Shown: positions 1-32,796 of the stretch, in pieces
Position numbering within the stretch: the stretch's first letter is position 1
Layout: the number at the start of each line of letters is the position of its first letter
Virus record (IMG/VR): IMGVR_UViG_3300042273_000209
Source of the DNA: a virus
Length of the DNA stretch: 36,310 nucleotides
Strand: one strand, 5' to 3'
The notes under the pieces: generated by a model
Database searches by the model: none
What the model was told of the DNA's origin: nothing
The model's input: only the letters and a program-made list of their open reading frames with translations
Made by a program: the position numbers and the translations under genes

Positions 1-90
1 CTGACGCCTTCGAAGGGACCGTCGTCGCCGGAGACGACCTGAAAGTTTCGGCGAGCGGTCGGCTGACCAACGGCATCGCGGCCGGAGAGC
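1..90. repeat. Terminal direct repeat, identical to 36221-36310 (circular permutation or assembly overlap)
   Basis: Bases 1-90 read identically to the last 90 bases of the window. Confidence 0.9.
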
Positions 91-152
91 ACGTCGTCGC
101 CCAGGCCATTTCCGTACAGAGCGGCGTCCTCAAATTCCGCCTGCTTGTCTAA
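3..152 (+). CDS. C-terminal part of a junction-spanning gene that starts at 36010; hypothetical beta-rich protein
   Basis: Open frame continues from 36010 through the repeat into 3-152 with stop TAA at 150-152. Confidence 0.4.
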   Translation, partial: DAFEGTVVAGDDLKVSASGRLTNGIAAGEHVVAQAISVQSGVLKFRLLV

Positions 153-197
153 CCCAAGTAGCCAACGCACATGGGAGCCAATCAGGGAGGCGAGCGA

Positions 198-512
198 ATG
201 AACCAGGCCCGAAAAGACGACCACGGCAAGCTTCGGTTTGACCTGATCCCGCCGGGGCCGCTGAAGGAAGTGGCCGCCATATACACCGTCGGGGCCGAGA
301 AATATGGCGACCGCAACTGGGAGCAGGGGTTGGCCTGGGGGCGCGTTTTTGCCGCCATCCAGCGCCACCTCTGGGCCTGGTGGGGCGGGGAGGAGCTAGA
401 CCCCGAGGACGGCCTGAGCCATTTGGCCCATGCGGCCTGGGGATGTTTCACGCTGATGGAGTACGCGCAGACCCACCCGGAGATGGACGAGAGGAAGGAG
501 GCGACAGAATGA
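198..512 (+). CDS. MazG-like dATP/dGTP diphosphohydrolase-domain protein (putative)
   Basis: Motif KDDHGKLRFDLIPP...GAEKYGDRNW...RHLWAW recalled from phage NTP pyrophosphohydrolase-like proteins; GGGAGG RBS before ATG 198. Confidence 0.5.
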   Translation: MNQARKDDHGKLRFDLIPPGPLKEVAAIYTVGAEKYGDRNWEQGLAWGRVFAAIQRHLWAWWGGEELDPEDGLSHLAHAAWGCFTLMEYAQTHPEMDERKEATE

Positions 513-757
513 GCATATCGCTCCGAATTCTCTCGCCGCCTGATCGACCTGGTGGTGGAGCGGGCGATGGAGATAGTGGGGGCCTCCTGATGGATTTTCC
601 GCTGACCTGCCCCAGGTGTGGATCACGCGAGATCTGCACGGCGGGGAGGGGAGAGCATCAGACGGAATATGGCCTGCACTGCTCCTCCTGTGGCCACGAG
701 GGGTGGGGGAAAACGATAAGTGAAGCGATAGATCAATGGGAGGCGGTGGAGGAATGA
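509..757 (+). CDS. Lar-family-like restriction alleviation zinc-ribbon protein (putative)
   Basis: CPRCGS...CSSCGHEG...EAIDQWEA pattern; ATGA overlap with upstream stop; alternative start at 590. Confidence 0.5.
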   Translation: MSISLRILSPPDRPGGGAGDGDSGGLLMDFPLTCPRCGSREICTAGRGEHQTEYGLHCSSCGHEGWGKTISEAIDQWEAVEE

Positions 758-1020
758 ATCACACGCCGGGACCGTGGTCTGTAGAGGCAATTTACGCATT
801 GCTGCGATTCGGCAGAAAAAGCGGTGGATCGTGGGACGACATAGGCGAAGAACATGAATTTTTCCCTGACGAAGACGACGCCAATCTCATCGCCGCCGCT
901 CCGGAGATGCTGGAGGCGCTTGAAGCAATGGTGGAGATGGTAGAGATGAACGGGTTGGGCAAACGGTATGCGCTTGACCTTGCCGCGTCCGCCATCACGA
1001 AAGCGAGGGGAGAGGAATGA
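754..1020 (+). CDS. Hypothetical small phage protein (AAAPEMLEALE motif)
   Basis: GGAGG RBS; ATG overlaps upstream stop; motif common in small phage early proteins. Confidence 0.5.
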   Translation: MNHTPGPWSVEAIYALLRFGRKSGGSWDDIGEEHEFFPDEDDANLIAAAPEMLEALEAMVEMVEMNGLGKRYALDLAASAITKARGEE

Positions 1021-1101
1021 GCCACGTGGATGTTGTCGGGCATGTCTACGCCGGGCATGAGGACGAGTTGAATCCCTATCTCGGGCAGGGGGTGGTAGTG
1101 G

Positions 1102-1266
1102 ATGACGTTTGATGAGCTGAAAGCTGTCGTCGTCGAGTGGTACGAGGCTGACGTTGGCAACGCAAAGGCAGACAAGTATTTGCGCCGGATAAACGCACAA
1201 CAGAGACTCGAACTGGCCGCCCGCTGTCTGATTGAAGAGGGCGGGAAGGCGGAGGTGACGGAATGA
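1102..1266 (+). CDS. Hypothetical small protein (54 aa)
   Basis: Hand-found ORF below the ORF-track cutoff; its stop overlaps the ATG of the next small ORF (1263-1397), which in turn overlaps 1394. Confidence 0.3.
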   Translation: MTFDELKAVVVEWYEADVGNAKADKYLRRINAQQRLELAARCLIEEGGKAEVTE

Positions 1267-1393
1267 GCCATACGCAGAAGGCGCTGAAGGCTGGCGACGG
1301 CACGGCGTATAGATGCTACGAGTTTGCGGCAGCCAAGATGGCCTCTCTGGACCTGGCGACGGCTCTGGTGAGTCTACGAAGGGGCGCGAACGA

Positions 1394-1552
1394 ATGACTC
1401 GCCAGCGCTGTCAGATCTATTCCCGCGTCGTCGGATTTCTCACCCCCATCTCGCAGTGGAACAAGGGCAAGCAGGAGGAGTTCAGGGACAGGAAGACGTT
1501 TGATAAGCAGTTGAGGGGCAAACGCATCGGAACGTCACAAACGCATCATTAG
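1394..1552 (+). CDS. Small protein resembling the C-terminal glycyl-radical loop of class III ribonucleotide reductase NrdD
   Basis: SRVVGFLTPISQWNKGKQEEFRDRKTF matches the NrdD C-terminal motif R-V-x-G-Y-L-x-P-x3-W-N-x-GK-Q-x-E; start 1394 preferred over 1313 (better RBS, ATGA coupling). Confidence 0.4.
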   Translation: MTRQRCQIYSRVVGFLTPISQWNKGKQEEFRDRKTFDKQLRGKRIGTSQTHH

Positions 1553-1562
1553 GAGGTTGCCG

Positions 1563-2072
1563 ATGAGCCGCATTGACAAGGTCGTTAGCGTCCTGGAGTT
1601 GCTGTTGAGGAGGCACAAGGAGCCCCTGCTGGTCCTGCTGGGCGAGGTGGATCCGCCGGCGCTTTATCACTGGGCCGAGATCCTTCCCGTCCGCGGAGAG
1701 GATATTGGCCGAGTCGGCCGAGTCGATGGATCGCCTGGTACTCCCGAGCAGGAACGCCTTGTCTCGTCGGTGGACGTCATTGAGAGGGCTATCGACAAGG
1801 CCGGAGGGTGGGCGGGCATTGTCGCGGCAACACGGGAGGTGCGGCAGCGGGAACCGATGGGGTGGAACCTATTCGTCGAGCACGTGCTCTGGGTGGGCGA
1901 GGGCTCGAAGCTCGATCTTGCCGGCGGCCAGCTGGACAAGATCTGCGACAGATACGGGGTTTGCCGGGCGACGGTCTGGAGATGGAGGGCGCAGATCCCC
2001 AGGTTGATCGCTCGACAGGCCTGCCATGGAGGGCAACGGGTCTTCGCCTTCTGGGTCTCCGTGCAACATTAA
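1563..2072 (+). CDS. Hypothetical protein with C-terminal HTH-like segment
   Basis: AGGAGG RBS 6 nt before ATG; C-terminal LDKICDRYGVCRATVWRWR resembles a DNA-binding HTH. Confidence 0.5.
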   Translation: MSRIDKVVSVLELLLRRHKEPLLVLLGEVDPPALYHWAEILPVRGEDIGRVGRVDGSPGTPEQERLVSSVDVIERAIDKAGGWAGIVAATREVRQREPMGWNLFVEHVLWVGEGSKLDLAGGQLDKICDRYGVCRATVWRWRAQIPRLIARQACHGGQRVFAFWVSVQH

Positions 2073-2251
2073 AGTATCATCAAAGTATAGGCTAAACGTG
2101 CTATTGAATATCGGGAATGGGCTGTATGCTTATAGTGTGGCGCAAGTTGGGGGACTGAGTATCGGGCCTCCGCCGCCGACGAGGGACAGATGCCCCTCGA
2201 AAGAGCAGCCTCGGCCACACCTGGCCGGGGCTTTATTTGTGAGGTGAGCCC

Positions 2252-2557
2252 ATGCCAAGGAAGCCAGGGGAGCAGTATGCGACCAAACGGCGCAAGGACA
2301 GAGAGCGACGGTACAACGCCTCCCGTCCTGCACGGCATGGATTCTATGCTTCTCCAGAGTGGAGACGAGTGAGGGATTGGTACCGAACCAGACATCCGCT
2401 CTGTGAGGAGTGCCAGAGACAGGGACGCGTGGCGGCTGCTGAGTTGGTCCACCATAAAGTGGAGATATCAGAGGGTGGCGAGCCGCTGGACGTGGAGAAT
2501 CTAGAAAGCCTTTGCAGGAGCTGTCATAGCAAGGTGCATGGGTTCAAGCAAGGGTAG
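2252..2557 (+). CDS. HNH endonuclease
   Basis: CEECQRQGR...AELVHHKVEI...LESLCRSCHSKVH signature; typical partner of terminase. Confidence 0.8.
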   Translation: MPRKPGEQYATKRRKDRERRYNASRPARHGFYASPEWRRVRDWYRTRHPLCEECQRQGRVAAAELVHHKVEISEGGEPLDVENLESLCRSCHSKVHGFKQG

Positions 2558-2642
2558 GGGGGGGAGTTAGAGTCTACAGCCCTACTTTATTTTTTACGCC
2601 GGGGAGTCGCACGCGAGATTTCGCAAGTTAGGACATGGGGGG

Positions 2643-3134
2643 GTGGCTAAGATCAAAGTGACAAAAAAGCGCGTTGAGGAATTGACTCCATACTCCAGAA
2701 ATTCAAGGACGCACAGCGACGCGCAGGTCGCGCAGATAGCAGCATCTATACGCGAGTTTGGTTTTATAAATCCCGTCTTGGTTGACGCGGAAAACAACAT
2801 CATCGCCGGCCATGGGCGCGTGCTGGCAGCCCGAAAACTCGGTCTTGAGGAAGTGCCGTGTGTACTCCACGATCATCTGACGGAGACGCAGCGCAAGGCG
2901 TATATCCTTGCAGACAACAAACTTGCGCTCAATGCAGGATGGGATGAAGACATGCTCCGCTTGGAATTGCGCGAGCTTGGTGACATGGGTTTTGATTTGG
3001 AGTTGACGGGGTTTGATGAGGTAGAAGTTGAGGCATTAAACCATAAGGTGAATATAGATGATTTTTTTTCAGACAGAGAAGGAGAAGTGCCAAAGGAACC
3101 TAAGTTATGCCCTCATTGTGGTGGTGTTTTATGA
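2643..3134 (+). CDS. ParB-like nuclease-domain protein (possible DpdB-like partner of DpdA)
   Basis: ParB N-terminal motif INPVLVD...IIAGHGRVLAARKLGLEEVPCV; GTG start; stop overlaps start of next gene. Confidence 0.6.
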   Translation: MAKIKVTKKRVEELTPYSRNSRTHSDAQVAQIAASIREFGFINPVLVDAENNIIAGHGRVLAARKLGLEEVPCVLHDHLTETQRKAYILADNKLALNAGWDEDMLRLELRELGDMGFDLELTGFDEVEVEALNHKVNIDDFFSDREGEVPKEPKLCPHCGGVL

Positions 3135-3865
3135 GGATTCACCTTGCGGGGATAGTTAGAGCTAGTTGTTGCATTGAAGAAGCAAGGAAGGCTCTTTTTG
3201 TTCTCGAATCGTTCCAGACTATAAATAGGTGGGTTGTAGAATCAATCCCGTATTGGAAGTCTTTTATCCTTGACAGTGGCGCTTTTACATATATGTCAAA
3301 CACTTCAAAAGGTGGAAGTGTAAATTGGGAAGACTATGTGAGCAGATATGCTGATTTTATCAAAAACCACAAAATCAAACATTACATAGAGCTTGACATT
3401 GATTCAATCGTCGGACTTAAGGAGGTTGAGAGATTACGCAATATCCTTGAAAACAAGGTAGGGTATCCATCAATACCAGTATGGCATAAAAGCAGGGGGA
3501 AAGATGAGTTTATACGCATGTGCCGTGATTACAAATATGTAGCGATTGGTGGAATCGTAACGAAGGAGTTCACACGAAAGGATCATAAATACTTCCCATG
3601 GTTCATAGACAAAGCGCATGAAATGGGAGCGGAGATACACGGGCTGGGATACACTTCAAGCAACTTGAGGAAATACCAATTCGATTCCGTTGATTCCACA
3701 AGCTGGCTTAGTGGCGGAAAATATGGCAGTTTATGCGTCTTGAAAAACAAAAAAATTAAATATGTTACCGTGAAGGGGAAAAAAATTTCACGGGATCAGG
3801 ATGCAAATGTTCATAACTTAAGAACTTGGATTATGTACCAAAAACTATTATACGATGGGAAATAA
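3131..3865 (+). CDS. dpdA: DpdA-like tRNA-guanine-transglycosylase-family protein (putative 7-deazaguanine DNA transglycosylase)
   Basis: ILDSGAFTYM resembles the TGT catalytic DSGGFQ motif; AT-rich cassette next to YhhQ-like gene. Confidence 0.5.
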   Translation: MRIHLAGIVRASCCIEEARKALFVLESFQTINRWVVESIPYWKSFILDSGAFTYMSNTSKGGSVNWEDYVSRYADFIKNHKIKHYIELDIDSIVGLKEVERLRNILENKVGYPSIPVWHKSRGKDEFIRMCRDYKYVAIGGIVTKEFTRKDHKYFPWFIDKAHEMGAEIHGLGYTSSNLRKYQFDSVDSTSWLSGGKYGSLCVLKNKKIKYVTVKGKKISRDQDANVHNLRTWIMYQKLLYDGK

Positions 3866-3877
3866 TCAGGAGGGTTT

Positions 3878-4486
3878 ATGGAAAAAAACAATAGAAACCT
3901 AATCACGATCAATGCTGTTTTTGTAGTCAGTCTTATCATGGCTAATGTCGTGGCGTCGAAAATCGTTGACGTTTTTGGATTTGTAGTTCCCGCTGCCGTT
4001 GTTGCTTACGGGATCACCTTCCTTTGCACGGATGTTATTGGTGAGATTTGGGGGAAGGAAGAAGCAAACAAGACCGTCAAATTGGGGTTTGTTATGCAAA
4101 TCCTATCTCTATGCCTTATCATTTTGGCGATAATGCTTCCGCCGGCGGTTTTTGCTGTTGAAGAGGGAAAGTCTTTTAATTCAATACTGGGGCAATCTGG
4201 AAGGGTGGTAGTTGCTAGTCTTATCGCCTACTTGGTAGCTCAATTCAATGATGTTTATGTTTTCCACAAACTGAAAGGCGCTTGCAACGGAAGAGCAAAG
4301 TGGATTCGGAACAATGGAAGCACTATTTTAAGCCAGTTTTTCGACACTGCAATTTTCATTACTGTGGCGTTTTACGGAGTAGTCCCTGACCTTGGATGGA
4401 TGGTTATCAGTCAGTATGTTGTAAAGGTCGTGATAGCGCTCTGTGATACACCTTTATTCTACTTCTTTACACGTAAAAGTGTATGA
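3878..4486 (+). CDS. yhhQ: Queuosine precursor transporter, YhhQ/DUF165 family
   Basis: Multi-TM protein; VVASLIAYLVAQFNDVYVFHKLK and CTDVIGEIWG resemble E. coli YhhQ; AT-rich. Confidence 0.7.
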   Translation: MEKNNRNLITINAVFVVSLIMANVVASKIVDVFGFVVPAAVVAYGITFLCTDVIGEIWGKEEANKTVKLGFVMQILSLCLIILAIMLPPAVFAVEEGKSFNSILGQSGRVVVASLIAYLVAQFNDVYVFHKLKGACNGRAKWIRNNGSTILSQFFDTAIFITVAFYGVVPDLGWMVISQYVVKVVIALCDTPLFYFFTRKSV

Positions 4487-4522
4487 AAAAATACTGGCGC
4501 AATGGGGTAGGAGGCGATTTTT

Positions 4523-5008
4523 GTGGCAGGGCCGCCAAGAAAACCAACGAAGCTAAGGATCCTGGAAGGGAACCCATCAAAGCGTCCCCTTCCAAAAAAT
4601 GAACCGGAGCCAGACCCTACAATGCCACAGTGTCCTGATTGGCTCATGGACGACGCTAAAGATGAGTGGAAGCGCGTTGCTCCGGAGTTGAACCGCATTG
4701 GATTACTGACAATAATTGACCAGACCGCGTTAGCAGGATACTGCCAGTCTTATGCAAGGTGGAAAAAGGCCGAGGAAGAAATCAAACTGCTCAAAAATAC
4801 AATATACCCATTAAAAGACGAAGCGGGAAACATTAAGGGCTTCCAGCAGTATCCACAGTACGGGATAGCAAATCAATGTCTAAAACAAATACGGGCGTTT
4901 TGCTCTGAGTTTGGGTTGACCCCGGCAGCGCGTGCGAAGATGGAATTGCCAACTGAGAGGAACCGTGACGACGACTTCGCCTCCAAACTTCGCTCGAAGA
5001 TAGGCTGA
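4523..5008 (+). CDS. Terminase small subunit, P27 family
   Basis: GTG start after AGGAGG; N-terminal GPPRKPTKLRILEGNPSKRP typical of P27-family small terminase. Confidence 0.8.
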   Translation: MAGPPRKPTKLRILEGNPSKRPLPKNEPEPDPTMPQCPDWLMDDAKDEWKRVAPELNRIGLLTIIDQTALAGYCQSYARWKKAEEEIKLLKNTIYPLKDEAGNIKGFQQYPQYGIANQCLKQIRAFCSEFGLTPAARAKMELPTERNRDDDFASKLRSKIG

Positions 5009-5012
5009 TCCC

Positions 5013-6557
5013 ATGTTTTCACGCAAAAAAGCAGACTGGGCGATTGAATTTATTGCCAGGCTAAAACACACAAAAGGCGAATGGGCCGGCAAGCCCTTCC
5101 TGCTTCAAAAATGGCAGAAGATGTTTTTGAAGGAACTCTTCGGGCGCGTCAAAGATGACGGACTCCGGCAATATCAGACCGCATATCTGGAGATCCCGCG
5201 CAAAAACGGGAAGTCTGAACTTGCCGCCGCCATCGCTCTTTTTCTCCTCTTCGGAGACGGGGAGCCGGGAGCGGAAATATACAGCGCCGCGTCGGACAGG
5301 GAGCAGGCATCCCTCGTATTCAACGCGGCTGCGTATATGGTCCGCAATGACCCGGTGCTCTCCGGCATGTGCAAAATCATCGACTCTCAGAAGCGGATCG
5401 TGTTCTACGAGACGGCGAGTTTTTACCGGGCCATCAGCGCGGAGGCATACTCGAAGCACGGATTCAACGCGCACGCCGTCATTTACGACGAAATTCACAG
5501 CGCACCGAACCGTGACCTCTGGGACGTGCTTTCCACGTCCATGGGAGCGAGGACACAACCGCTCATGCTCGGGATTACGACGGCAGGCTACGACCGGAAC
5601 TCCATCTGCTGGGAACTTCACGACTACGGGCAAAAAATCATTGACGGCGTGGTTGAAGATCCAACATTTTTCCCGCTCATATTCGCCGCCGACGAGGGAG
5701 ACGAATGGACGGACGAAAAAACGTGGAGGAAGGCGAACCCGAACCTAGGGGTATCAATCAAGCTCGACTTCCTGCGTCGGGAGTGCAAACGCGCCCAGGA
5801 GATCCCCGCCTACCAGAACACGTTCCGGCGGCTGTACCTCAACCAGTGGACGACTCAGGAAACGCGTTGGCTCGATATGTCGAAATGGCGCGAGTGCGGA
5901 GAGGACTTCGACCTCTCGAAGCTCGCAGACCTCCAATGCTGGGCTGGCGTGGACTTGAGCACCACGACCGACATATCCTCTTGCGCCTTGGTATTCGAGC
6001 CGGACGAGGAAGACAGGGTCCACGTCCTCTCGTTTAATTGGGTACCCGGCGACAACATCGCGGCAAGGGTTCGCCGTGACCGCGTGCCATACGACGCATG
6101 GGCGCGAGACGGGCATATCGTGGCGACGGACGGCAACGTCATAGACCATGACTACATCAGAAATTCTATCGCCATCGACCTTAAAGCTATGTTCCCGCGC
6201 TTGGAGGTCGTTGGATACGACCCATGGAACGCCACAAAATGGGCCATCGACCTCGAAGGCGACGGCGTGCCGGTGGTGCAGATCCGGCAGGGGTACAAGA
6301 CCATGAGCCCCGCATGCAAGGAATTAGAACGGCTTGTGCTCGGGGGTTATTTGCGCCACAACAATAACCCTGTTTTGACCTGGGCAATGGACAACGTTAT
6401 GGTCACGCAAGACCCGGCGGGGAATATTAAACCCGCAAAGGACAAGGCGACTGAGAGGATAGACCCGGCAGTTGCTCTAATAACCGCCATCGCCACCATG
6501 CTGGAGTTCCGCGACGAGCCGTCAATCTATGAATCGAGGGGAATACTAACTCTCTGA
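5013..6557 (+). CDS. Terminase large subunit
   Basis: 514 aa; conserved terminase_1 blocks (EIPRKNGKSELAAA, VIYDEIH, nuclease C-terminus). Confidence 0.9.
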   Translation: MFSRKKADWAIEFIARLKHTKGEWAGKPFLLQKWQKMFLKELFGRVKDDGLRQYQTAYLEIPRKNGKSELAAAIALFLLFGDGEPGAEIYSAASDREQASLVFNAAAYMVRNDPVLSGMCKIIDSQKRIVFYETASFYRAISAEAYSKHGFNAHAVIYDEIHSAPNRDLWDVLSTSMGARTQPLMLGITTAGYDRNSICWELHDYGQKIIDGVVEDPTFFPLIFAADEGDEWTDEKTWRKANPNLGVSIKLDFLRRECKRAQEIPAYQNTFRRLYLNQWTTQETRWLDMSKWRECGEDFDLSKLADLQCWAGVDLSTTTDISSCALVFEPDEEDRVHVLSFNWVPGDNIAARVRRDRVPYDAWARDGHIVATDGNVIDHDYIRNSIAIDLKAMFPRLEVVGYDPWNATKWAIDLEGDGVPVVQIRQGYKTMSPACKELERLVLGGYLRHNNNPVLTWAMDNVMVTQDPAGNIKPAKDKATERIDPAVALITAIATMLEFRDEPSIYESRGILTL

Positions 6558-6574
6558 CACTTAACCCACAAGTT

Positions 6575-6608
6575 AAGCCGCTTTCCTTCGGGGGGCGGCT
6601 TTTTTATT
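6575..6608 (+). terminator. Rho-independent terminator after large terminase
   Basis: GC stem aagccgc...gcggctt followed by a T-run. Confidence 0.6.
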
Positions 6609-7914
6609 GCCAAAAAAGGAGGTGAAAACCCTGAAAAAGAGCGTTTTCGCGCAAATAAAAGACATTTTTCGGCGGGGATTGTACCCCGGAGGACACCCGT
6701 CGGAAGCCGAGATCGTTCGCATACTCACGGGGGCAAGCCTGACGGGACACACCGTGGACGAAGAAAAAGCCATGAGGTTCTCGGCGGTTTACTCCTGCGT
6801 GCGCGTTCTCTCGGAGTCAGTGGCGCAGTTGCCGCTCAAAATCTACCGGCGCAAGGGGGACGGGAGGCAGGAGGCTGCCGACCATTATCTTTATCCACTC
6901 CTGCACGGTGCCCCGAACCCTCGGCAGACGGCGTTCTCGTTCTGGGAGGCCGTCACCGCGAGCCTCGCTCTCTGGGGCAACGCCTACGCCCTCATCGACC
7001 TTGACAACGCCGGCAGGGTGGCAGCGCTCTGGTTCCTCGATCCGTCCACGGTCACACCCAGGAAAGTTCTGACCACTGGCGAGCTTGTTTATGACGTGGC
7101 GATGAAGGACGGCACCAGCCGGACGTTCCTGTGGGGAGAACTGTTCCACATCCCGGGGCTGGGCTTCGACGGCCTTCGGGGTCATTCCGTGGTGAGGGTG
7201 GCGGCGGAGGCTATCGGGCAGGGGATAGCGGCCAGCGAGTACGCTGGGAGATTTTTCGACAATGACGCGACACCGAGGGGTGTACTGGAAACGGACGCTT
7301 TTTTCAAAGACCCGTCTGTCGTCGAACGCCTCAGGAGGTCATGGAACGATCTCTACCAGGGGACAAACAACGCCCACCGGGTGGCCATCCTTGAAAACGG
7401 TCTGAAATTCAAACCGCTGACCATCAACCCCGAGGACGCGCAACTGCTCGAAACGCGCAAGTTCAACAGGTCTGAAATCGCCGGGATCTTCCGTGTGCCC
7501 CTGCACATGATCGGCGACCTGGACAAGGCGACGTTCAGCAACATCGAACACCAGAGTATCGACTTCGTGAAATTCAGTCTCTCGCCATGGCTCAAAAGGA
7601 TTGAACAGGCTATATCCCTGCAACTCTTCTCTCCGGGGGAGCGTAAGCGGTATTTTGCCGAGTTCAAGCCGGAAGGGATGCTCAAAGGGGACGTCAAGAG
7701 CAGGTATGAGGCATACGAGGTGGCTATCCGCAGCGGTTGGATGAGCATCAACGAGGTCCGTGGACTGGAGAATTTGAACCCCGTAGACGGTGGAGACGAG
7801 CACTATCTCCAGATGCAGATGATACCCATCTCGCAGGCGGGAAAGGAGGCAGAGGATGGACAGGGAAATTCGAGCGATCCCGGCGGAGTTCCGGGTGAAG
7901 GAATCGGAGAATGA
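6607..7914 (+). CDS. Portal protein, HK97 family
   Basis: FSAVYSCVRVLSESVAQLPLKIYRR and downstream portal blocks; start uncertain (TTG 6607, CTG 6631 after AAGGAGGTG RBS, or ATG 6772). Confidence 0.8.
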   Translation: MPKKEVKTLKKSVFAQIKDIFRRGLYPGGHPSEAEIVRILTGASLTGHTVDEEKAMRFSAVYSCVRVLSESVAQLPLKIYRRKGDGRQEAADHYLYPLLHGAPNPRQTAFSFWEAVTASLALWGNAYALIDLDNAGRVAALWFLDPSTVTPRKVLTTGELVYDVAMKDGTSRTFLWGELFHIPGLGFDGLRGHSVVRVAAEAIGQGIAASEYAGRFFDNDATPRGVLETDAFFKDPSVVERLRRSWNDLYQGTNNAHRVAILENGLKFKPLTINPEDAQLLETRKFNRSEIAGIFRVPLHMIGDLDKATFSNIEHQSIDFVKFSLSPWLKRIEQAISLQLFSPGERKRYFAEFKPEGMLKGDVKSRYEAYEVAIRSGWMSINEVRGLENLNPVDGGDEHYLQMQMIPISQAGKEAEDGQGNSSDPGGVPGEGIGE

Positions 7915-8434
7915 GCCGCTGAAGATCATCGGCTACGCGGCGCGGTTCAACGAGCTCTCGGAAGAAATGTGGGGCATGCGGGAAAAAATCGCCCCAGGCG
8001 CATTCACGGAAGCCATCGGAAAAAGCGACGTGAGAGCCTTGTGGAACCATGACCCGAACTACGTTTTAGGACGCACCAAAAACGGCACCCTGCAGATCCG
8101 CGAGGACGAGCAGGGTCTTTTTTATGAGGTCACGCCTCCGGATGCGCAGTGGGCGCGGGACCTGGTGGAGAGCATAAAGCGGGGGGACGTGGACCAGTCC
8201 AGCTTCGCCTTCACGGTGGACGTGGAGCAATGGGACGAATCGGGAAGCCCAGTGGTCCGCACCATCGTAAAAGTGCGCGAGTTGTTTGACGTTTCGCCGG
8301 TCACCTATCCGGCCTATCCCACGGCCACCAGCGGCGTGCGGTCCCTGCAGGACGTGGCGAAGGAGCACAAGGCGGCACCGGCACCAAAAGCCCCGGAACA
8401 TCTCCGGGACAAACTTAAATTTCTGGAGGTATGA
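7856..8434 (+). CDS. Prohead protease, HK97 family
   Basis: LKIIGYAARFNELSEEM...IAPGAF; overlaps portal 3' end. Confidence 0.85.
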   Translation: MDREIRAIPAEFRVKESENEPLKIIGYAARFNELSEEMWGMREKIAPGAFTEAIGKSDVRALWNHDPNYVLGRTKNGTLQIREDEQGLFYEVTPPDAQWARDLVESIKRGDVDQSSFAFTVDVEQWDESGSPVVRTIVKVRELFDVSPVTYPAYPTATSGVRSLQDVAKEHKAAPAPKAPEHLRDKLKFLEV

Positions 8435-8435
8435 A

Positions 8436-9623
8436 ATGAATATCAGGGAAATGATGGAACAGCGCGCAACCCTTGTTGCAGAGGCCCGGAAGCTGCTTGA
8501 CGTTGCCGAGGGCGAGAAGCGGGAACTGAACGCTGAAGAGCGGACGCAGTACGACAAGATTTTTGAAGAGGCTCGCACCCTGGGTGACAAGATTCAGCGC
8601 GAGCAGGAGCTTCGCGAAGAGGAAAGGCGGCTCGCCGAGGCCGGCCGGCTGGAACCCGAGGGGAAAAAGGAAAATCCCGAAGAGCGCAAGCTTAAAGCGT
8701 TCCGCAATTTCCTTGTCACGGGCAACGCCGCGGAATATCGCGCACTGGCTAACGACACCGACGAGACGGGTGGATTCCTTCACGCTGCGGAGCAGTTTAT
8801 CACTCGGCTCATCAAGGGACTGGATGACAGGGTATTTGTCCGGCAGTACGCCACCGTCCTGCCCGTGACCAGCTCCGATACTCTCGGTGTTCCCGTCCTG
8901 ACCGCAGACCCGGGAGACCCCACGTGGACAACGGAAATCGCCGCTCCCTCCGAGGACAGCACCATGGCCTTCGGACGGCGCAGCCTGCAGCCCGAACAGC
9001 TCTCCAAGCTGATCAAAATTTCCATGAAGCTCCTTCGGACCTCGGCCCTGCCCATCGAGAATCTCGTGGCGGACAGGCTCGCGTACAAGTTCGCCGTGGC
9101 GCAGGAAAACGCGTTCCTCAACGGCGACGGCGACGGGCAGCCTCTCGGCATTTTCACCGCAAGCGACGACGGAATCCCGACTACTCGCGACGTGAGCACC
9201 GGCAACAGCGATACGGCGTTGACAGCGGACGGGTTGATCAACGCGAAATTCGCGCTCAAGGCTCAGTATCGCGGCTCCTGCCGTTGGATCTTCCATCGAG
9301 ACGCGGTGAAGATGATCTCCACGCTCAAGGACGGGGAAGGTCAGTACCTTTGGAGACCGGGGATGCTCATGAACGAGCCGGACATGCTTCTTGGGCATCC
9401 CGTTGACGAGAGCGAGTATGTGCCCAACACCTTTACCACCGGCCTGTACGTCGGCGCGCTCTGCAACTGGAGTAACTACTGGATTGCCGAGCTCCAGGGC
9501 GTGGAGCTCCAGAGGCTCGTAGAACTCTACGCGGGAACCTCGCAGATCGGATTCATCGGCCGGATGTATGCCGACGGCGCTCCCGTCCTTGCGGAATCCT
9601 TTGTCCGCGTCAAGCTCGGATAG
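8436..9623 (+). CDS. Major capsid protein, HK97 fold, with N-terminal coiled-coil delta domain
   Basis: GGAGGT RBS; ATG next to protease stop; 395 aa. Confidence 0.9.
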   Translation: MNIREMMEQRATLVAEARKLLDVAEGEKRELNAEERTQYDKIFEEARTLGDKIQREQELREEERRLAEAGRLEPEGKKENPEERKLKAFRNFLVTGNAAEYRALANDTDETGGFLHAAEQFITRLIKGLDDRVFVRQYATVLPVTSSDTLGVPVLTADPGDPTWTTEIAAPSEDSTMAFGRRSLQPEQLSKLIKISMKLLRTSALPIENLVADRLAYKFAVAQENAFLNGDGDGQPLGIFTASDDGIPTTRDVSTGNSDTALTADGLINAKFALKAQYRGSCRWIFHRDAVKMISTLKDGEGQYLWRPGMLMNEPDMLLGHPVDESEYVPNTFTTGLYVGALCNWSNYWIAELQGVELQRLVELYAGTSQIGFIGRMYADGAPVLAESFVRVKLG

Positions 9624-23420: not shown

Positions 23421-23713
23421 TCCCTCTCCTCGTCCATGAAGGCGCCCATTACCTGGCGGCCTTCCTGGTGGGGAGCCGCCTTCGTTTTCGCTTTTCGTGG
23501 GGGCGGTTGGGACCGGTCAAGGTACCCAGGTGGACATGGACGTGGCCGGACACGACGCCCCAAAAAATACGTTTCATCTGTCAGGCCGGGTTCCTTCTGG
23601 AGCTCGGCCTGATCCCGTTTGCTCCCTGGCAGTATCAGGCGGTGGCCATTATCCATTTTGCCGCTTATCCCTGGTATGCCGGGGATCACAGCGATTTCAG
23701 GGGGATGATCTGA
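23399..23713 (+). CDS. Small membrane protein with HExxH motif (HEGAH) in first hydrophobic helix
   Basis: ILWGIVPLLVHEGAHYLAAFLVG; immediately upstream of endolysin. Confidence 0.4.
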   Translation: MGILWGIVPLLVHEGAHYLAAFLVGSRLRFRFSWGRLGPVKVPRWTWTWPDTTPQKIRFICQAGFLLELGLIPFAPWQYQAVAIIHFAAYPWYAGDHSDFRGMI

Positions 23714-24261
23714 TGGCGCGATTTGACGATTGTCTACAGGTGGTGCTGGGCTTCGAGGGCGGGTACAGCCACCACGAGGCCGACCGGGGAGGCCGCACGA
23801 ACTGGGGCATCACGGAGGCGACGCTAAAAGAGGCCCGCAAGCGCGGCATCGTGGGTCACTCCGACATTGCGCGACTCAAAACCCACGAGGCCGCAGCCAT
23901 CTATGAGGCGCTCTACTGGGTGCCGTCTCGGGCCGACGACATGCCGCAGCCGCTCGACCTCGTCGTCTTCGACTGCGCCGTTAACCACGGCGTCGGGGGG
24001 GCCGGTCGCCTCCTGCAGGAGGCGGTCAACGCCGTGATGGACGCCGATCTTGTGGTGGATGGAATCGTCGGACCGGCGACACAGCGAGAGTTAATGAAAG
24101 CCCTGGCTGCCAATCGCCCCGAGGCGCTGGCCCTGGCTATGCTGGCCATGAGGGCCCGCTATTTCGTCCGTATCGTCGAGGGCAACCCCAGTCAGCGGGC
24201 GTTTTTCTGGGGCTGGGTGCGTCAGAGAGTGGCCAACCTTATCGACAAGCTCAGGAGGTGA
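23713..24261 (+). CDS. Endolysin, glycoside hydrolase family 108-like with peptidoglycan-binding C-terminus
   Basis: VLGFEGGYSHHEADRGGRTNWGIT motif. Confidence 0.8.
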   Translation: MARFDDCLQVVLGFEGGYSHHEADRGGRTNWGITEATLKEARKRGIVGHSDIARLKTHEAAAIYEALYWVPSRADDMPQPLDLVVFDCAVNHGVGGAGRLLQEAVNAVMDADLVVDGIVGPATQRELMKALAANRPEALALAMLAMRARYFVRIVEGNPSQRAFFWGWVRQRVANLIDKLRR

Positions 24262-28651: not shown

Positions 28652-29095
28652 CTAGTTCCCCTCCGCCCGCATGAGGCGGAGGGAGAGGGGCAAATCCCAC
28701 GCCGACAGAGTCTCCGCCCTGTCGGCGTCGTCCATCCCGAGGTCCAGACGTCCGTAGGCGTCGTACCTCGGGGCCGGGGCCTTGTCGGCCCCCTCCTCGT
28801 CGGCGCGCTCCTCGGTGATCTCGATTACGATCACCGGGATCGCTTCCAGGCCCGCCAGTCTCGCCGCGGCAATGCGGTGAGACCCGGTGTGGGCCTGGAG
28901 GCCCATGGGTGACTGGGAGGCCAAGATCGGCCGCCCCTGCCACCCATGGGCCTCCATGGATGCCGTCAGGGACGCCAGTTTTTCAGCGTCCCTGACCTCG
29001 TGCGGAGGCTCGACCTCGTTGGGGTCGGCCTCCGCCTCTGCTTCCGTTAGGGTGACCGTCCATAGGTCACCCCACTCGTCCTGGATCTGGGGCAT
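28652..29095 (-). CDS. ParB-like N-terminal-domain protein (gene g)
   Basis: GRPILASQSPMGLQAHTGSHRIAAARLAGLEAIPVIVIE; AAGGAGGTG RBS before ATG 29095 (alternative ATG 29194). Confidence 0.6.
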   Translation of the reverse strand: MPQIQDEWGDLWTVTLTEAEAEADPNEVEPPHEVRDAEKLASLTASMEAHGWQGRPILASQSPMGLQAHTGSHRIAAARLAGLEAIPVIVIEITEERADEEGADKAPAPRYDAYGRLDLGMDDADRAETLSAWDLPLSLRLMRAEGN

Positions 29096-29323
29096 GACGG
29101 TCACCTCCTTCCTTTTTTTTTTGCCCTGGCAGTGGCTGGTGTCGTCGACCTCGCCCGGCTCGCGCTGCCCCTGGGGGGGCTTCGCGGCGGTCATGGCGCG
29201 GGTGGCTGACGACGCTGCCCGATGCCAGTCGATGGGTGCCAGGGGATACTTTCCCGCCCGGCTTTCTGTCGGCCGCCCATCGCGGCCTTCCCGTTGTCAA
29301 GGTCCCTGTCGCTTGGTGATTAC

Positions 29324-30751: not shown

Positions 30752-31042
30752 GTGATTCGATGCAAGCTGAAAATCCCTGACGGGATTCTGGAGTCACGGC
30801 GACAGGCAGCGGAAGAGGTGAGCGAGTTCTTGCGCACCGCGCAGGCCGGGGCCCGCGCGTTCATCGAGCACGAGGACTTTCAGGCCCGCTTCTGCGCATA
30901 CTGCGCGGCCCAGGGCGACGAGGACGAGTGTCCCACGGGGCTGACGATCGGCCACGCGGAGTGTTGGCGGGTCACGGAGTTCCGCGACCTCTGCCGGGAG
31001 CTGGCCGATCTTGAGCGGGAATACACGGGGAGGCGAGCGTAG
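30752..31042 (+). CDS. Hypothetical Cys-containing protein
   Basis: GTG start 11 nt after AGGAGG. Confidence 0.45.
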   Translation: MIRCKLKIPDGILESRRQAAEEVSEFLRTAQAGARAFIEHEDFQARFCAYCAAQGDEDECPTGLTIGHAECWRVTEFRDLCRELADLEREYTGRRA

Positions 31043-31056
31043 TGGAGGCCAGGGAG

Positions 31057-31869
31057 ATGGCCGCGGATGCGAAATTGTCCTGCCTTATTTCGGGACTTGA
31101 AAACGAGGTTTATCACGCCTCTCCCGGCCTTTCAAAATCTGACCTAGACAGGATCGCCAAGAGCCCTGCGCACTATGTGGCCGCAAAAAAAGAGGCCGTC
31201 TCCCCCACGCCGGCCATGAGGTTCGGCACGGCGGTTCACGCGGCCGTCCTGGAGCCGGAGCTGTTCAGGGAAACCTACGCGATGGCTCCAGGGGTAGATC
31301 GCAGAACCAAAGCCGGCAAGGAGGCCTGGGAGGAGTTCCAGGCCTCCGGCAGGCAGCCTCTTACCTCCGACGAGTGGGCGGCCATCGCGGGCATGAGGGA
31401 TTCCGTCATGGCCCTCCCGGCGGTCAAGCGGATCCTCGCCGGCGGCGAGGCTGAAATGAGTCTCTTCCACTACCTGGACGAACTGGGGGTCAGGGCAAAA
31501 ATCCGGCCTGACTGGGCAAACTCCGATATCGCCACGCTCTTCGACCTAAAGACCACTAGGGACGCTTCTCCTGACCAGTTCGCGAAATCCTGTGCAACCT
31601 TCCGGTATCACGTCCAGGCGGCATTCTATTCGGACGTGTGGAGGATGCGTACCGGCCAGCCAGTCAGGGCCTTCGTGTTCTGCGCGGTGGAGAAAGAGCC
31701 ACCCTACGCGGCGGCTCTCTACGTCCTGGACGACGAGGCCATTCAGGCAGGGAGGGCGCTCTACCGCTACGATCTCGAAACCTATGCTACCTGTCGGGAA
31801 GCCGACGAATGGCCTGCCTATTCGACCGACGTTGAGACCCTGAGCCTTCCGGCCTGGGCGCTGAGATAA
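31057..31869 (+). CDS. PD-(D/E)XK-family exonuclease (recombination module)
   Basis: Synteny with RecT; FDLKTT and QAAFYSDV motifs; GGAGG RBS before ATG 31057. Confidence 0.55.
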   Translation: MAADAKLSCLISGLENEVYHASPGLSKSDLDRIAKSPAHYVAAKKEAVSPTPAMRFGTAVHAAVLEPELFRETYAMAPGVDRRTKAGKEAWEEFQASGRQPLTSDEWAAIAGMRDSVMALPAVKRILAGGEAEMSLFHYLDELGVRAKIRPDWANSDIATLFDLKTTRDASPDQFAKSCATFRYHVQAAFYSDVWRMRTGQPVRAFVFCAVEKEPPYAAALYVLDDEAIQAGRALYRYDLETYATCREADEWPAYSTDVETLSLPAWALR

Positions 31870-31881
31870 GGAGGATTCGAC

Positions 31882-32796
31882 ATGGCACAGGACAGAGCAA
31901 TCGCGCTCAAGAAGAACATGGAAAATCTCAAGGGGATGCTCCAGAAGGCCCTGCCAAGGCTCCAGGAAGTGGCGGCCTCAAGCATCGACCCTAAGCGCAT
32001 GATCCGATTGGTCGCTGCGGCGGCAAACCGAAATCCGAAGCTCCTGGAATGCACGCCACTTTCGGTGGTGTCGAGCCTGATGACCTCGGCTCAACTGGGG
32101 CTTGAGCCGGTCGGGCCTTTGGGGCAGGCCTACCTGGTCCCCTACTGGAACTCGCAAGCGAGGGTCAATGAGGCTCAGCTCCAGATCGGGTATCGGGGAC
32201 TGATCGAGCTGGCCCGCCGGTCAGGGGCTATTTCCTCTCTGGAGGCTCATGTTGTCTATGAGAGGGATGCCTTCGAGCTTGTCTATGGCTTGGCATCGGA
32301 CATCGTGCACAAGCCCTGTTTGGACGGAGATCCCGGCCAGCTGCGGGCTGTTTACGCTGTGGCTCGCTTCAAGGACGGTTCGGTGCAGTTCGAGGTCATG
32401 ACGCGGGCTCAGGTGGAAACGATCAAGGCCCGTTCTCAGAACGGGAAAAACAGCAAGGGCCCCTGGGCAACTGATTATGACGAGATGGCCAGGAAGACCG
32501 TGGTGAAACGGCTCTGCAAGTATCTCCCGCTGTCCGTGGAGATGGCCGATGCCATTCAGATAGACAATGCAACCGAGGAGGGGCGGATCCCGGATAGCTT
32601 CCTCGAGGCCGAGATCTCGGAGATTGGCGAAACGCCCCCTAACGACGCCTCGTTCCTGAACGAGCCGGAGGGCTCGAAGGAACGGTGGGGGAAAGACGAG
32701 ACGGCAAGGCCTGCGGGGGAGGAACAGGAGCAGCTTTCCGACTTCGCCTTCCTGCCCGAGGCCGAGGCCGAGCGCGAGCCCGGCGAAGAAGGCTAG
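31882..32796 (+). CDS. recT: RecT-family single-strand annealing recombinase
   Basis: GLEPVGPLGQAYLVPY and PWATDYDEMARKTVVKRLCKYLPLS motifs. Confidence 0.85.
   Translation: MAQDRAIALKKNMENLKGMLQKALPRLQEVAASSIDPKRMIRLVAAAANRNPKLLECTPLSVVSSLMTSAQLGLEPVGPLGQAYLVPYWNSQARVNEAQLQIGYRGLIELARRSGAISSLEAHVVYERDAFELVYGLASDIVHKPCLDGDPGQLRAVYAVARFKDGSVQFEVMTRAQVETIKARSQNGKNSKGPWATDYDEMARKTVVKRLCKYLPLSVEMADAIQIDNATEEGRIPDSFLEAEISEIGETPPNDASFLNEPEGSKERWGKDETARPAGEEQEQLSDFAFLPEAEAEREPGEEG

Follow-up and report, generated by a model that had tools for sequence, protein, structure and literature searches.

The viral record IMGVR_UViG_3300042273_000209 of IMG/VR (the window, by which we mean this whole stretch of 36,310 nucleotides) carries a small gene of 52 amino acids (aa) at positions 1394..1552 on the + strand. 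Based on its Pfam NRDD match, a profile of split tails and the ratio of non-synonymous to synonymous substitution rates (dN/dS), we describe this gene as a stand-alone glycyl-radical tail of NrdD, the anaerobic (class III) ribonucleotide reductase (RNR). The tail gene is real and under purifying selection, and its product is almost certainly a homologue of the small subunit of a split NrdD. In Synergistota, Halanaerobiales, Desulfuromonadaceae and several candidate phyla, genomic sequences indicate that NrdD is naturally split into a subunit of ~670 aa and a glycyl-loop gene of 45-60 aa. For the phage copy, we consider it rather likely that the host activase NrdG would activate the peptide and that the host large subunit would use it to sustain the synthesis of deoxynucleoside triphosphates (dNTPs).

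The tail gene and its conservation

The open reading frame (ORF) at 1394-1552 (+) has 52 codons and translates to MTRQRCQIYSRVVGFLTPISQWNKGKQEEFRDRKTFDKQLRGKRIGTSQTHH. Its ATG overlaps the TGA of an upstream 44-aa ORF (1263..1397, +) in the tetranucleotide ATGA, from which translational coupling of the tail gene to this ORF is predicted; the product of the upstream ORF matched no family in the family scan. The sequence letters further contain a Shine-Dalgarno-like GAAGGGG at 1378..1384 (+), 9 nt before the ATG of the tail gene, and the start codon is conserved among homologues. We rejected a longer in-frame ORF from position 1313 (79 aa) as a real gene, since it overlaps the ORF at 1263-1397 and the closest homologues begin at the Met equivalent to 1394.

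An earlier note on this DNA, made from the letters alone, had pointed out that the ORF resembles the glycyl-radical C-terminus of class III RNR, and our searches bear this out. When comparing the peptide to the Pfam family NRDD (PF13597), residues 4-36 align with profile positions 531-562 of 562 (E=6.3e-9). The score of 35.5 bits exceeds the curated cut-off of 26.2 and the peptide thus belongs to the family, although by its C-terminal positions only. In the NCBIfam model of NrdD (TIGR02487), residues 3-35 align with positions 548-580 of 581 (E=2.3e-8), where the 33 bits stay below the full-length cut-off of 326. The NRDD match is far beyond chance, even given the hundreds of short ORFs in 36 kb. 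Of the two alignments that the earlier note had proposed, the one to NrdD C-termini is significant (Pfam and NCBIfam) and the one to the GrcA family (Gly_radical) gave no match: in a Pfam scan of the peptide up to E=10, NRDD alone was returned, without Gly_radical (PF01228). In PHROGs, the peptide matches only the C-terminal ends of full-length NrdD families, and these weakly (best E=0.0056); we found no PHROGs family for a lone NrdD tail.

A single-sequence search of the Protein Data Bank (PDB) returned only NrdD of Thermotoga maritima (4COI/4U3E), as a weak match (E=0.12). Residues 6-37 of the peptide align with residues 613-645 of this protein, which places Gly14 on Gly621. Gly621 is the glycyl-radical site of T. 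maritima NrdD and is located in the C-terminal loop that directly follows the zinc-ribbon domain and dips into the barrel of the enzyme (PMC4493059). By this alignment, the GGA codon at 1433..1435 (+) encodes the predicted radical glycine, Gly14, within SRVVGF. The conserved core from Y9 to R33, YSRVVGFLTPISQWNKGKQEEFRDR, is encoded at 1418..1492 (+).

The earlier note was also right that the barrel and the zinc ribbon are absent. The peptide contains one Cys (C6) and hence does not have the zinc ribbon of NrdD. As it has no ten-stranded alpha/beta barrel with a finger-loop Cys, it is not an NrdD enzyme but only the tail of one. The other parts of the enzyme are not encoded elsewhere in the 36-kb window either, as tblastn with four NrdD barrels and NrdG gave no matches across it, and Pfam scans of 30 window ORFs detected no RNR barrel.

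To estimate selection, we calculated dN/dS over the 32-codon core between the window gene and other phage-borne copies, and excluded pairs for which the proportion of synonymous differences (pS) according to Nei and Gojobori (NG86) was above 0.75 and thus saturated. The window gene differs from the copy at locus L005 by 5.5 synonymous and 1.5 non-synonymous differences (dN/dS 0.056), and from the copy at L166 by 8 and 2, respectively (0.046). For the copies at L089 and L008, we counted 12 synonymous and 5 non-synonymous differences (0.053) and 13 synonymous and 4 non-synonymous differences (0.033).

The small size of the gene is typical of its relatives. All 58 of the 58 homologues found by a word-indexed search are 39-85 aa long. 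Among 29 aligned stand-alone tails, S10, R11, V12, V13, G14, F15, P18, W22, N23, G25, K26, E28, E29 and R33 are invariant in every sequence, and the radical glycine is kept in 69/69 viral stand-alone copies that were picked up by the motif. The residues that are invariant in operon-encoded tails are equally invariant in the phage copies. In a profile search of 1.84 billion cluster representatives, we found 4806 proteins at E<=1e-3, of which 2176 had E<=1e-10; these representatives stand for clusters at 50% identity. The best 150 of the 4806 matches are 48-192 aa long and all but two of them (148/150) have at most 106 aa. The split tails of 40-60 aa share the family core [CT]-E/Q-x-[YF]-S-R-V-V-G-[FY]-x-x-P-x-x-x-W-N-x-G-K-x-E-E, which is also present in the window peptide. 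The residue after the radical glycine is mostly Phe in the genomic stand-alone tails (GF in 32/41) and mostly Tyr in long ORFs (GY in 31/39). The family of split-NrdD small subunits, as encoded in nrdD-nrdG-tail operons, is defined in this analysis and not taken from the literature.

Some members of the family have unusual architectures. In P0059 (66 aa), the core EVYSRVVGYLSPVSHWNEGKKEEW is tandemly duplicated inside one short ORF. In P0143, a metagenomic representative of 192 aa, the NrdD tail (residues 4-39) is located N-terminal to a deoxycytidine monophosphate (dCMP)/cytidine deaminase domain (PF00383, E=1.9e-18). This fusion may link the NrdD tail to another enzyme of dNTP metabolism, with a gene-calling artefact as an alternative. 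Some tail ORFs carry the database label 'anaerobic ribonucleoside-triphosphate reductase'; the similarity has thus been noticed by machines but apparently not interpreted.

Split NrdD in cellular genomes and lone tails in phages

To find the cellular counterparts, one genome per GTDB species was scanned and the best 80 loci were classified from the stop-to-stop length of the ORFs together with tblastn searches with NrdD barrels and NrdG. In Aminobacterium colombiense, for instance, an operon encodes NrdD (678 aa, ATP-cone and NRDD), NrdG (229 aa, radical SAM) and, as the third gene, a tail of 51 aa. The NrdD ends in ...FSVCPIHGYIPGAHEYCPYCDAEKGYMEEVKSL and thus stops just past the zinc-ribbon motif, without a glycine loop. 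The order nrdD(large)-nrdG-tail was observed at 22 Synergistota and Halanaerobiales loci, and the order nrdD(large)-tail-nrdG in Woesearchaeota, Saccharibacteria/Dojkabacteria, Armatimonadia, Iainarchaeum and one Halanaerobiales locus. The latter order is also found in Desulfuromonadaceae (L179, 3981-6851), with a large subunit of 666 aa and a tail of 47 aa followed by nrdG.

All split large subunits stop shortly after the ribbon (...CPxHGY..CPxC) and have no glycine loop, whereas full-length NrdD relatives run on past the ribbon (...CPKCGxxCEVYSRVVGYLRPVxQWNKGKQEEF). The 120 closest relatives of the large subunit of Aminiphilus are nearly all 670-690 aa long and include the cultured Aminobacterium, Halothermothrix orenii, Orenia, Jonquetella, Dethiosulfovibrio, Iocasia and Halanaerobium. 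In the Synergistota tested (Aminirod, Aminiphilus, Aminobacterium and others), the loop was always a separate gene of ~50 aa in the nrdD-nrdG operon. From this genomic context of the tail genes in nrdD-nrdG operons, we infer that this class III RNR is naturally split and that the family represents its small subunit, the one that bears the radical. One candidate for a split NrdD, L026, was rejected as it was found to be full length.

The cellular scan revealed further arrangements. At L047 (3892-6438; Patescibacteria metagenome-assembled genome (MAG), JAKLIO010000014.1), a full-length NrdD with its own loop is followed after 18 nt by a 92-aa ORF and then by nrdG. In the 92-aa ORF, a second glycine loop is combined with a CxxC..CxxC ribbon (Pfam NRDD, E=2.5e-13); such an arrangement is what one would expect if RNR had a true spare part of the GrcA type. 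At L172-L174, lone tail copies are located on chromosomes; the 46-aa gene of L172 (6001-6141) is adjacent to rpmE and prfA, and neither nrdD nor nrdG occurs within 6 kb of it. The upstream neighbour of this gene, of 561 aa, was considered as a divergent barrel and rejected, being secreted-looking and without RNR features. Lastly, some split-type large subunits, namely P0282, P0295, P0300, P0305 and P0317 (854-1028 aa), contain intein or LAGLIDADG domains (PF14890, PF14528), which indicates that mobile elements also target the split-NrdD clade.

The nearest named relative of the window peptide is encoded by Aminirod propionatiphilus (CP074691), with 98% identity over the conserved part. This relative is located in a podovirus-like prophage (L005), between a dGTP_diPhyd_N gene and a DUF722/terminase block. 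The earlier note had proposed to check whether the host encodes nrdDG, and this related genome does: its chromosome contains a split operon (L178), 600 kb from the prophage tail, with a large subunit nrdD-L of 678 aa (C-terminus ...CPYCDAERGYVEEEKIS), an nrdG of 230 aa and a tail of 52 aa, MEKDKRTRCEIYSRVVGFLTPVSQWNKGKKEEFRDRRTFDRVLEKKAQVAVH. When comparing the cores of the prophage tail and the chromosomal tail, we found 78% DNA identity, a pS of 0.71, a proportion of non-synonymous differences (pN) of 0.086 and 88% protein identity. As pS is near saturation at such a low pN, the two tails do not result from a recent duplication; they are old copies that have been maintained independently. 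Similarly, four MAGs of Synergistaceae/Aminiphilus each have, besides a single operon copy, one or two lone copies.

The window peptide itself resembles the tails from split operons. Its core has 84-88% identity to the operon-encoded tails of Synergistota, and it scores 89.0 bits on a profile made from operon split tails only, compared to 77.4 bits on a profile of full-length NrdD C-termini (11.6 bits in favour of the former). The window copy is not located beside a truncated nrdD and nrdG, as neither gene is in the window; in Aminirod, the operon lies elsewhere in the genome.

Lone tails occur in at least five unrelated phage backbones. These are the HK97-like window phage, the podovirus-like Aminirod prophage (L005), a lambda-like phage with CI/Cro, DnaB, GpA terminase and ClpP (L166), a P22-like Synergistaceae prophage (L169/L170, 8423-10553) and Mu-like prophages of Desulfuromonadales (L171, L180). 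In the P22-like prophage, the tail gene is located between terS and terL and overlaps both by 4 nt. It is thus in a late operon, compared to the early operon of the window, and this difference in placement suggests a moron-like mobility of the tail gene. The copies in the Mu-like prophages bear KCxxxTEVYSRVVGFFRP, which is the signature of the chromosomal tail of Desulfuromonadaceae. Hence, a host with a split NrdD and a phage with a matching lone tail are found in two phyla.

IMG/VR contains 407 stretches that encode a relative. We examined the best 80 of them, of which 78 bear the motif. The tail stands alone at 69 of these 78 loci, with a large subunit in the flanks in only 2/69; nrdG is absent from the flanks of all lone viral tails among these best 80 loci. 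Among the deposited phage genomes of INPHARED, there were two matches only, the archaeal virus ANMV-1 and one full-length NrdD; this collection holds no cultured-phage precedent for the 50-aa form of the tail. The ANMV-1 match (L175, 4686-5120; KP703175) is a 144-aa ORF with two CxxC pairs and the glycine loop but no barrel, and is annotated as 'anaerobic ribonucleoside triphosphate reductase'. Similar ORFs of ribbon plus loop, 77-140 aa long, are present in the viral loci L133, L151, L156, L161, L163 and L165. From their sequences, the ribbon-plus-loop ORFs look like a second, longer class of autonomous tail.

Function of the phage-borne tail

The NrdD of the host lineage has no loop of its own and the loop is a separate gene of the operon; the phage gene would therefore duplicate an obligate small subunit that belongs to the normal host enzyme. 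In the model that we favour, the host lineage has a large subunit of ~678 aa with ATP-cone, barrel and zinc ribbon, and a tail of ~50 aa with the SRVVGF loop that is encoded after nrdG. The phage peptide would be expressed from the early operon together with a dGTP/dATP diphosphohydrolase-like protein. Host NrdG and S-adenosylmethionine (SAM) would then turn Gly14 into a glycyl radical, and the loop of the peptide would enter the barrel of the host large subunit, where it would replace or supplement the host tail. The phage could benefit because more of the host reductase would be radical-loaded when phage DNA synthesis raises the demand for dNTPs. Alternatively, the benefit could be a re-supply after oxygen or radical quenching has destroyed the host tails. 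The neighbouring genes of the window, a MazZ-like diphosphohydrolase and a DpdA-like/Vut_1 module, fit a role in nucleotide supply.

Oxygen irreversibly destroys glycyl-radical enzymes at the radical glycine, and GrcA/YfiD for pyruvate formate-lyase is the sole remedy known. In a split enzyme, oxygen would destroy only the piece of 50 aa and the large subunit could thus be re-armed with a fresh tail. By analogy with known spare parts, the split NrdD would be a spare-part design by construction that is exploited by the phage. The earlier note had suggested that the peptide is a phage-supplied spare part for host NrdD. This idea holds in so far as the peptide, being an autonomous and replaceable radical carrier supplied by the phage, would act like a spare part; it does not hold as a patch for a full-length NrdD, as the host enzyme appears to be naturally split. 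Whether, across several phyla, a detachable and consumable glycyl-radical cofactor of ~50 residues serves class III RNR and has been captured by temperate phages to re-arm the host reductase is, in our judgement, evenly poised.

Some points speak against this model or limit it. AlphaFold2, when run on the peptide alone with the family alignment, gave a mean predicted local distance difference test (pLDDT) of 58.8 and a predicted template modelling score (pTM) of 0.17, values that carry no information on the fold. The host of the window phage would be a member of the Synergistota, of the family Aminiphilaceae or near it, as judged by the nearest relatives. The hosts could encode a second, full-length NrdD that was undetected here. 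Furthermore, the model leaves a conserved cysteine unexplained: T. maritima NrdD has Val at the position of Cys6, and the zinc motif of this enzyme, CxxxHx6CxxC, falls entirely within the region equivalent to the large subunit.

Cys6, which is encoded at 1409..1411 (+), is located 8 residues before Gly14, and Cys at this position is conserved in 39/41 genomic and 66/69 viral stand-alone tails. For Synergistota, a role of Cys6 as the fourth zinc ligand is not supported, given that the T. maritima motif maps entirely to the large subunit and that Val is found at -8. The residue may still be a metal ligand. In Desulfuromonadaceae (L179), the large subunit ends in ...DCPHMASTDDAGKAA (DCPHM) and so lacks the final Cys of CPxC; the tail starts with MEQKCKHKTEVY. 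As the large subunit is short of this Cys and the tail carries one, the sequences suggest that in Desulfuromonadaceae a metal site is shared by both subunits.

The peptide could also serve the phage as a decoy or dominant-negative protein that titrates host NrdG or blocks the large subunit and so throttles host dNTP synthesis, be it for the control of lysogen growth, for superinfection exclusion or to redirect nucleotides. A small mimic of the substrate loop is a plausible design for an inhibitor, the phage encodes no catalytic partner, and the gene is found in temperate phages with repressor and integrase modules; in addition, phage and host copies differ at a few flanking positions and in a C-terminal extension. 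However, an occupancy blocker needs no glycine, and the phage copies keep all residues that are invariant in operon tails, including the radical glycine, in a core that is 84-88% identical to the host operon tails. A reduced dNTP supply would moreover oppose the needs of a replicating double-stranded DNA phage, and the MazZ-like and DpdA-like neighbours point to nucleotide provisioning. We thus regard a decoy as unlikely. Classical repair of an oxygen-cleaved full-length NrdD, of the GrcA type, has a precedent in GrcA/YfiD for pyruvate formate-lyase (PFL; PMC13450708) and a possible cellular example in the Patescibacteria locus, where the 92-aa ORF with ribbon and loop lies beside a full-length NrdD. 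Many viral tails also have the canonical GY-LRP and score equally on the split and full-length profiles. Yet the NrdD of the relevant hosts has no glycyl loop, which leaves nothing on the large chain to be cleaved and replaced, and the window peptide favours the split-tail profile, so that such a repair seems quite improbable for this phage.

The peptide could instead carry a radical to, or act as an adaptor of, some partner that is not NrdD, be it a different glycyl-radical enzyme or a protein of the phage. It could also have a role independent of the radical, such as metal binding or regulation. These readings would agree with the conserved Cys at -8, the fusion of tail and dCMP deaminase in P0143 and the lone chromosomal copies far from nrdD (L172-174). 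We consider them very improbable, as there is no other barrel-type partner in the window and the sequence is nearly identical to tails inside nrdDG operons. We give hardly any credence to the remaining option, which the earlier note had left standing as a 'decayed remnant': a non-functional remnant of the 3' end of a captured nrdD, or an untranslated chance ORF. The gene is very short and without partner genes, and its single-sequence E-value in the PDB (0.12) is weak. A remnant is nevertheless rejected by the dN/dS of 0.03-0.06, with up to 13 synonymous versus 4 non-synonymous changes, and by the lone copies in five phage backbones. Furthermore, the gene has a conserved start, a Shine-Dalgarno-like site and an apparent coupling to the upstream ORF, and the prophage and chromosomal copies of Aminirod still have 88% protein identity although their synonymous sites are saturated. 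The reading that we prefer therefore remains that of a phage-encoded copy of the small subunit of the host NrdD.

A review of June 2026 states that formate lyases alone are known to have spare-part proteins, and that their existence for other glycyl-radical enzymes is 'yet to be determined' (PMC13450708). The phage tail in combination with the split host NrdD would seem to be the first case of a detachable radical 'spare part' beyond PFL. If this is true, PFL would no longer be the only glycyl-radical enzyme for which a spare-part system is known, and the tail gene would be the smallest known viral auxiliary metabolic gene that acts by protein-radical donation. The economy would be extreme for an auxiliary metabolic gene, with 159 bp instead of a 2.7-kb nrdDG cassette. 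As a possible extension, the free peptide could be the true substrate of NrdG, which would make the split NrdD uniquely tractable for studying the access of the activase to the buried glycine; a free substrate of 50 aa could also ease structural work on how NrdG reaches the glycine that is buried in the intact enzyme. The data suggest that autonomous NrdD radical tails form a large family (4806 representatives) which has so far gone unrecognised. They further show that class III RNR is naturally split in organisms that are in culture, namely Aminobacterium colombiense, Halothermothrix orenii, Orenia, Jonquetella and Iocasia, and that phages have repeatedly captured the tail alone. Together, these findings make the spare-part question of the review directly testable with three small recombinant proteins.

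The phage genome and comparison with known systems

Judged by its gene content, the window is essentially the whole genome of an HK97-type temperate siphovirus. Within a densely packed early operon (171-2072), the tail gene occupies the penultimate place. This operon also contains a MazZ-like protein with a dATP/dGTP diphosphohydrolase N-domain (171..512, +; Pfam PF18909, E=2.1e-36), whose family recurs near lone tails at L005, L027/L169, L097, L099 and L102. Directly downstream of the tail gene, a 169-aa helix-turn-helix (HTH) protein with a weak match to HTH_23 is encoded (1563..2072, +), which is probably a late-gene regulator. Its homologues adjoin the tail gene at L010, L036 and L087-L089. 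At L166, a 166-aa gene occupies the position of this HTH gene, and the counterpart at L005 and L169 matches DUF722/Sigma70_r4. A terminator-like hairpin (2207..2232, +), with an 11-bp stem of which 8 pairs are GC and a T-rich tail, is a consensus match only and would close the early operon.

Downstream of the early operon, the window encodes an HNH endonuclease (2252-2557) and a ParB-like protein (2643-3134). These are followed by a DpdA-like transglycosylase, a homologue of queuine tRNA-ribosyltransferase (3131-3865; phrog_887, E=8e-49), and by a transporter of the Vut_1/YhhQ type (3878-4486). The last two genes lie within an island of low GC content (3107-4486; 0.40-0.46 compared to 0.55-0.62 around it), which suggests a horizontally acquired module for 7-deazaguanine DNA modification. 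The morphogenesis genes include TerS (4523-5008), TerL (5013-6557), the portal (6607-7914), the capsid (8286-9623) and the structural genes of the phage tail (13613-21360); a GH108 endolysin (23497-24261) and a PDDEXK exonuclease with RecT (31042-32796) are located further downstream. The minus-strand ORFs between 25000 and 30100 have a high GC content (0.62-0.68), and their sole Pfam match is a second ParB_N protein (28652-29194); this block is presumably a lysogeny or accessory region. No integrase was identified among the window ORFs scanned. Rfam gave no match over positions 1-5000 of the window, and a promoter scan remained at background level.

Our literature search turned up neither a split class III RNR nor a lone NrdD tail, be it viral or cellular, although the coverage was incomplete and an earlier mention is possible; papers on RNR evolution mention a split for class II only. 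The tail can be compared to several known systems. Y06I of phage T4 is said, going back to Wagner et al. 2001, to be a phage-encoded homologue of GrcA/YfiD. Like GrcA/YfiD of Escherichia coli, the tail peptide is a small stand-alone protein which has, of all the parts of a large barrel enzyme, just the loop with the glycyl radical, and it would likewise be activated by the activase of the cognate enzyme, with the radical supplied in trans (for the mechanism of GrcA see PMC13450708). Unlike GrcA/YfiD, it matches Pfam NRDD and not Gly_radical, has 52 aa compared to 127 aa, and its cognate enzyme would be RNR instead of PFL. Furthermore, the NrdD of the host lineage has no loop of its own; hence, the tail would be an obligate subunit, whereas GrcA is an emergency patch.

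The tail shares with the canonical NrdD loop (Gly580 in T4, Gly681 in E. coli, Gly621 in T. maritima) the motif R-V-x-G-[YF]...W-N-x-G-K, the position after the zinc ribbon and the aligned glycines. It differs in being a separate gene, which in the window is apart from any RNR gene, and in having Phe instead of the usual Tyr after the glycine. A natural split of the catalytic chain of RNR into a barrel and a C-terminal polypeptide is also found in NrdJa/NrdJb of Pseudomonas aeruginosa, as described in PMC9669993 (see also PMC4520616). Unlike the split NrdD, NrdJa/NrdJb belongs to class II and depends on adenosylcobalamin. To our knowledge, no phage-borne lone NrdJb exists.

Within phages, the tail resembles the nrdD-nrdG auxiliary metabolic genes (PHROG 487 / 4218) in the presumed role, the supply of dNTPs under anoxia, but the window phage has neither the catalytic barrel nor the activase. 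RNR genes that are in pieces within a phage genome are a further parallel, as seen in the T4 nrdD intron, nrdA-a/nrdA-b of Aeh1 and nrdD-a/b of Lactococcus phage 949. A survey of phage RNRs reports such splits by introns, inteins or homing endonucleases only (PMC3653736). In these cases, the phages hold all pieces of the enzyme and the breaks stem from mobile elements. In contrast, the window phage encodes just the final ~35 conserved residues, and host operons show the split as a conserved trait.

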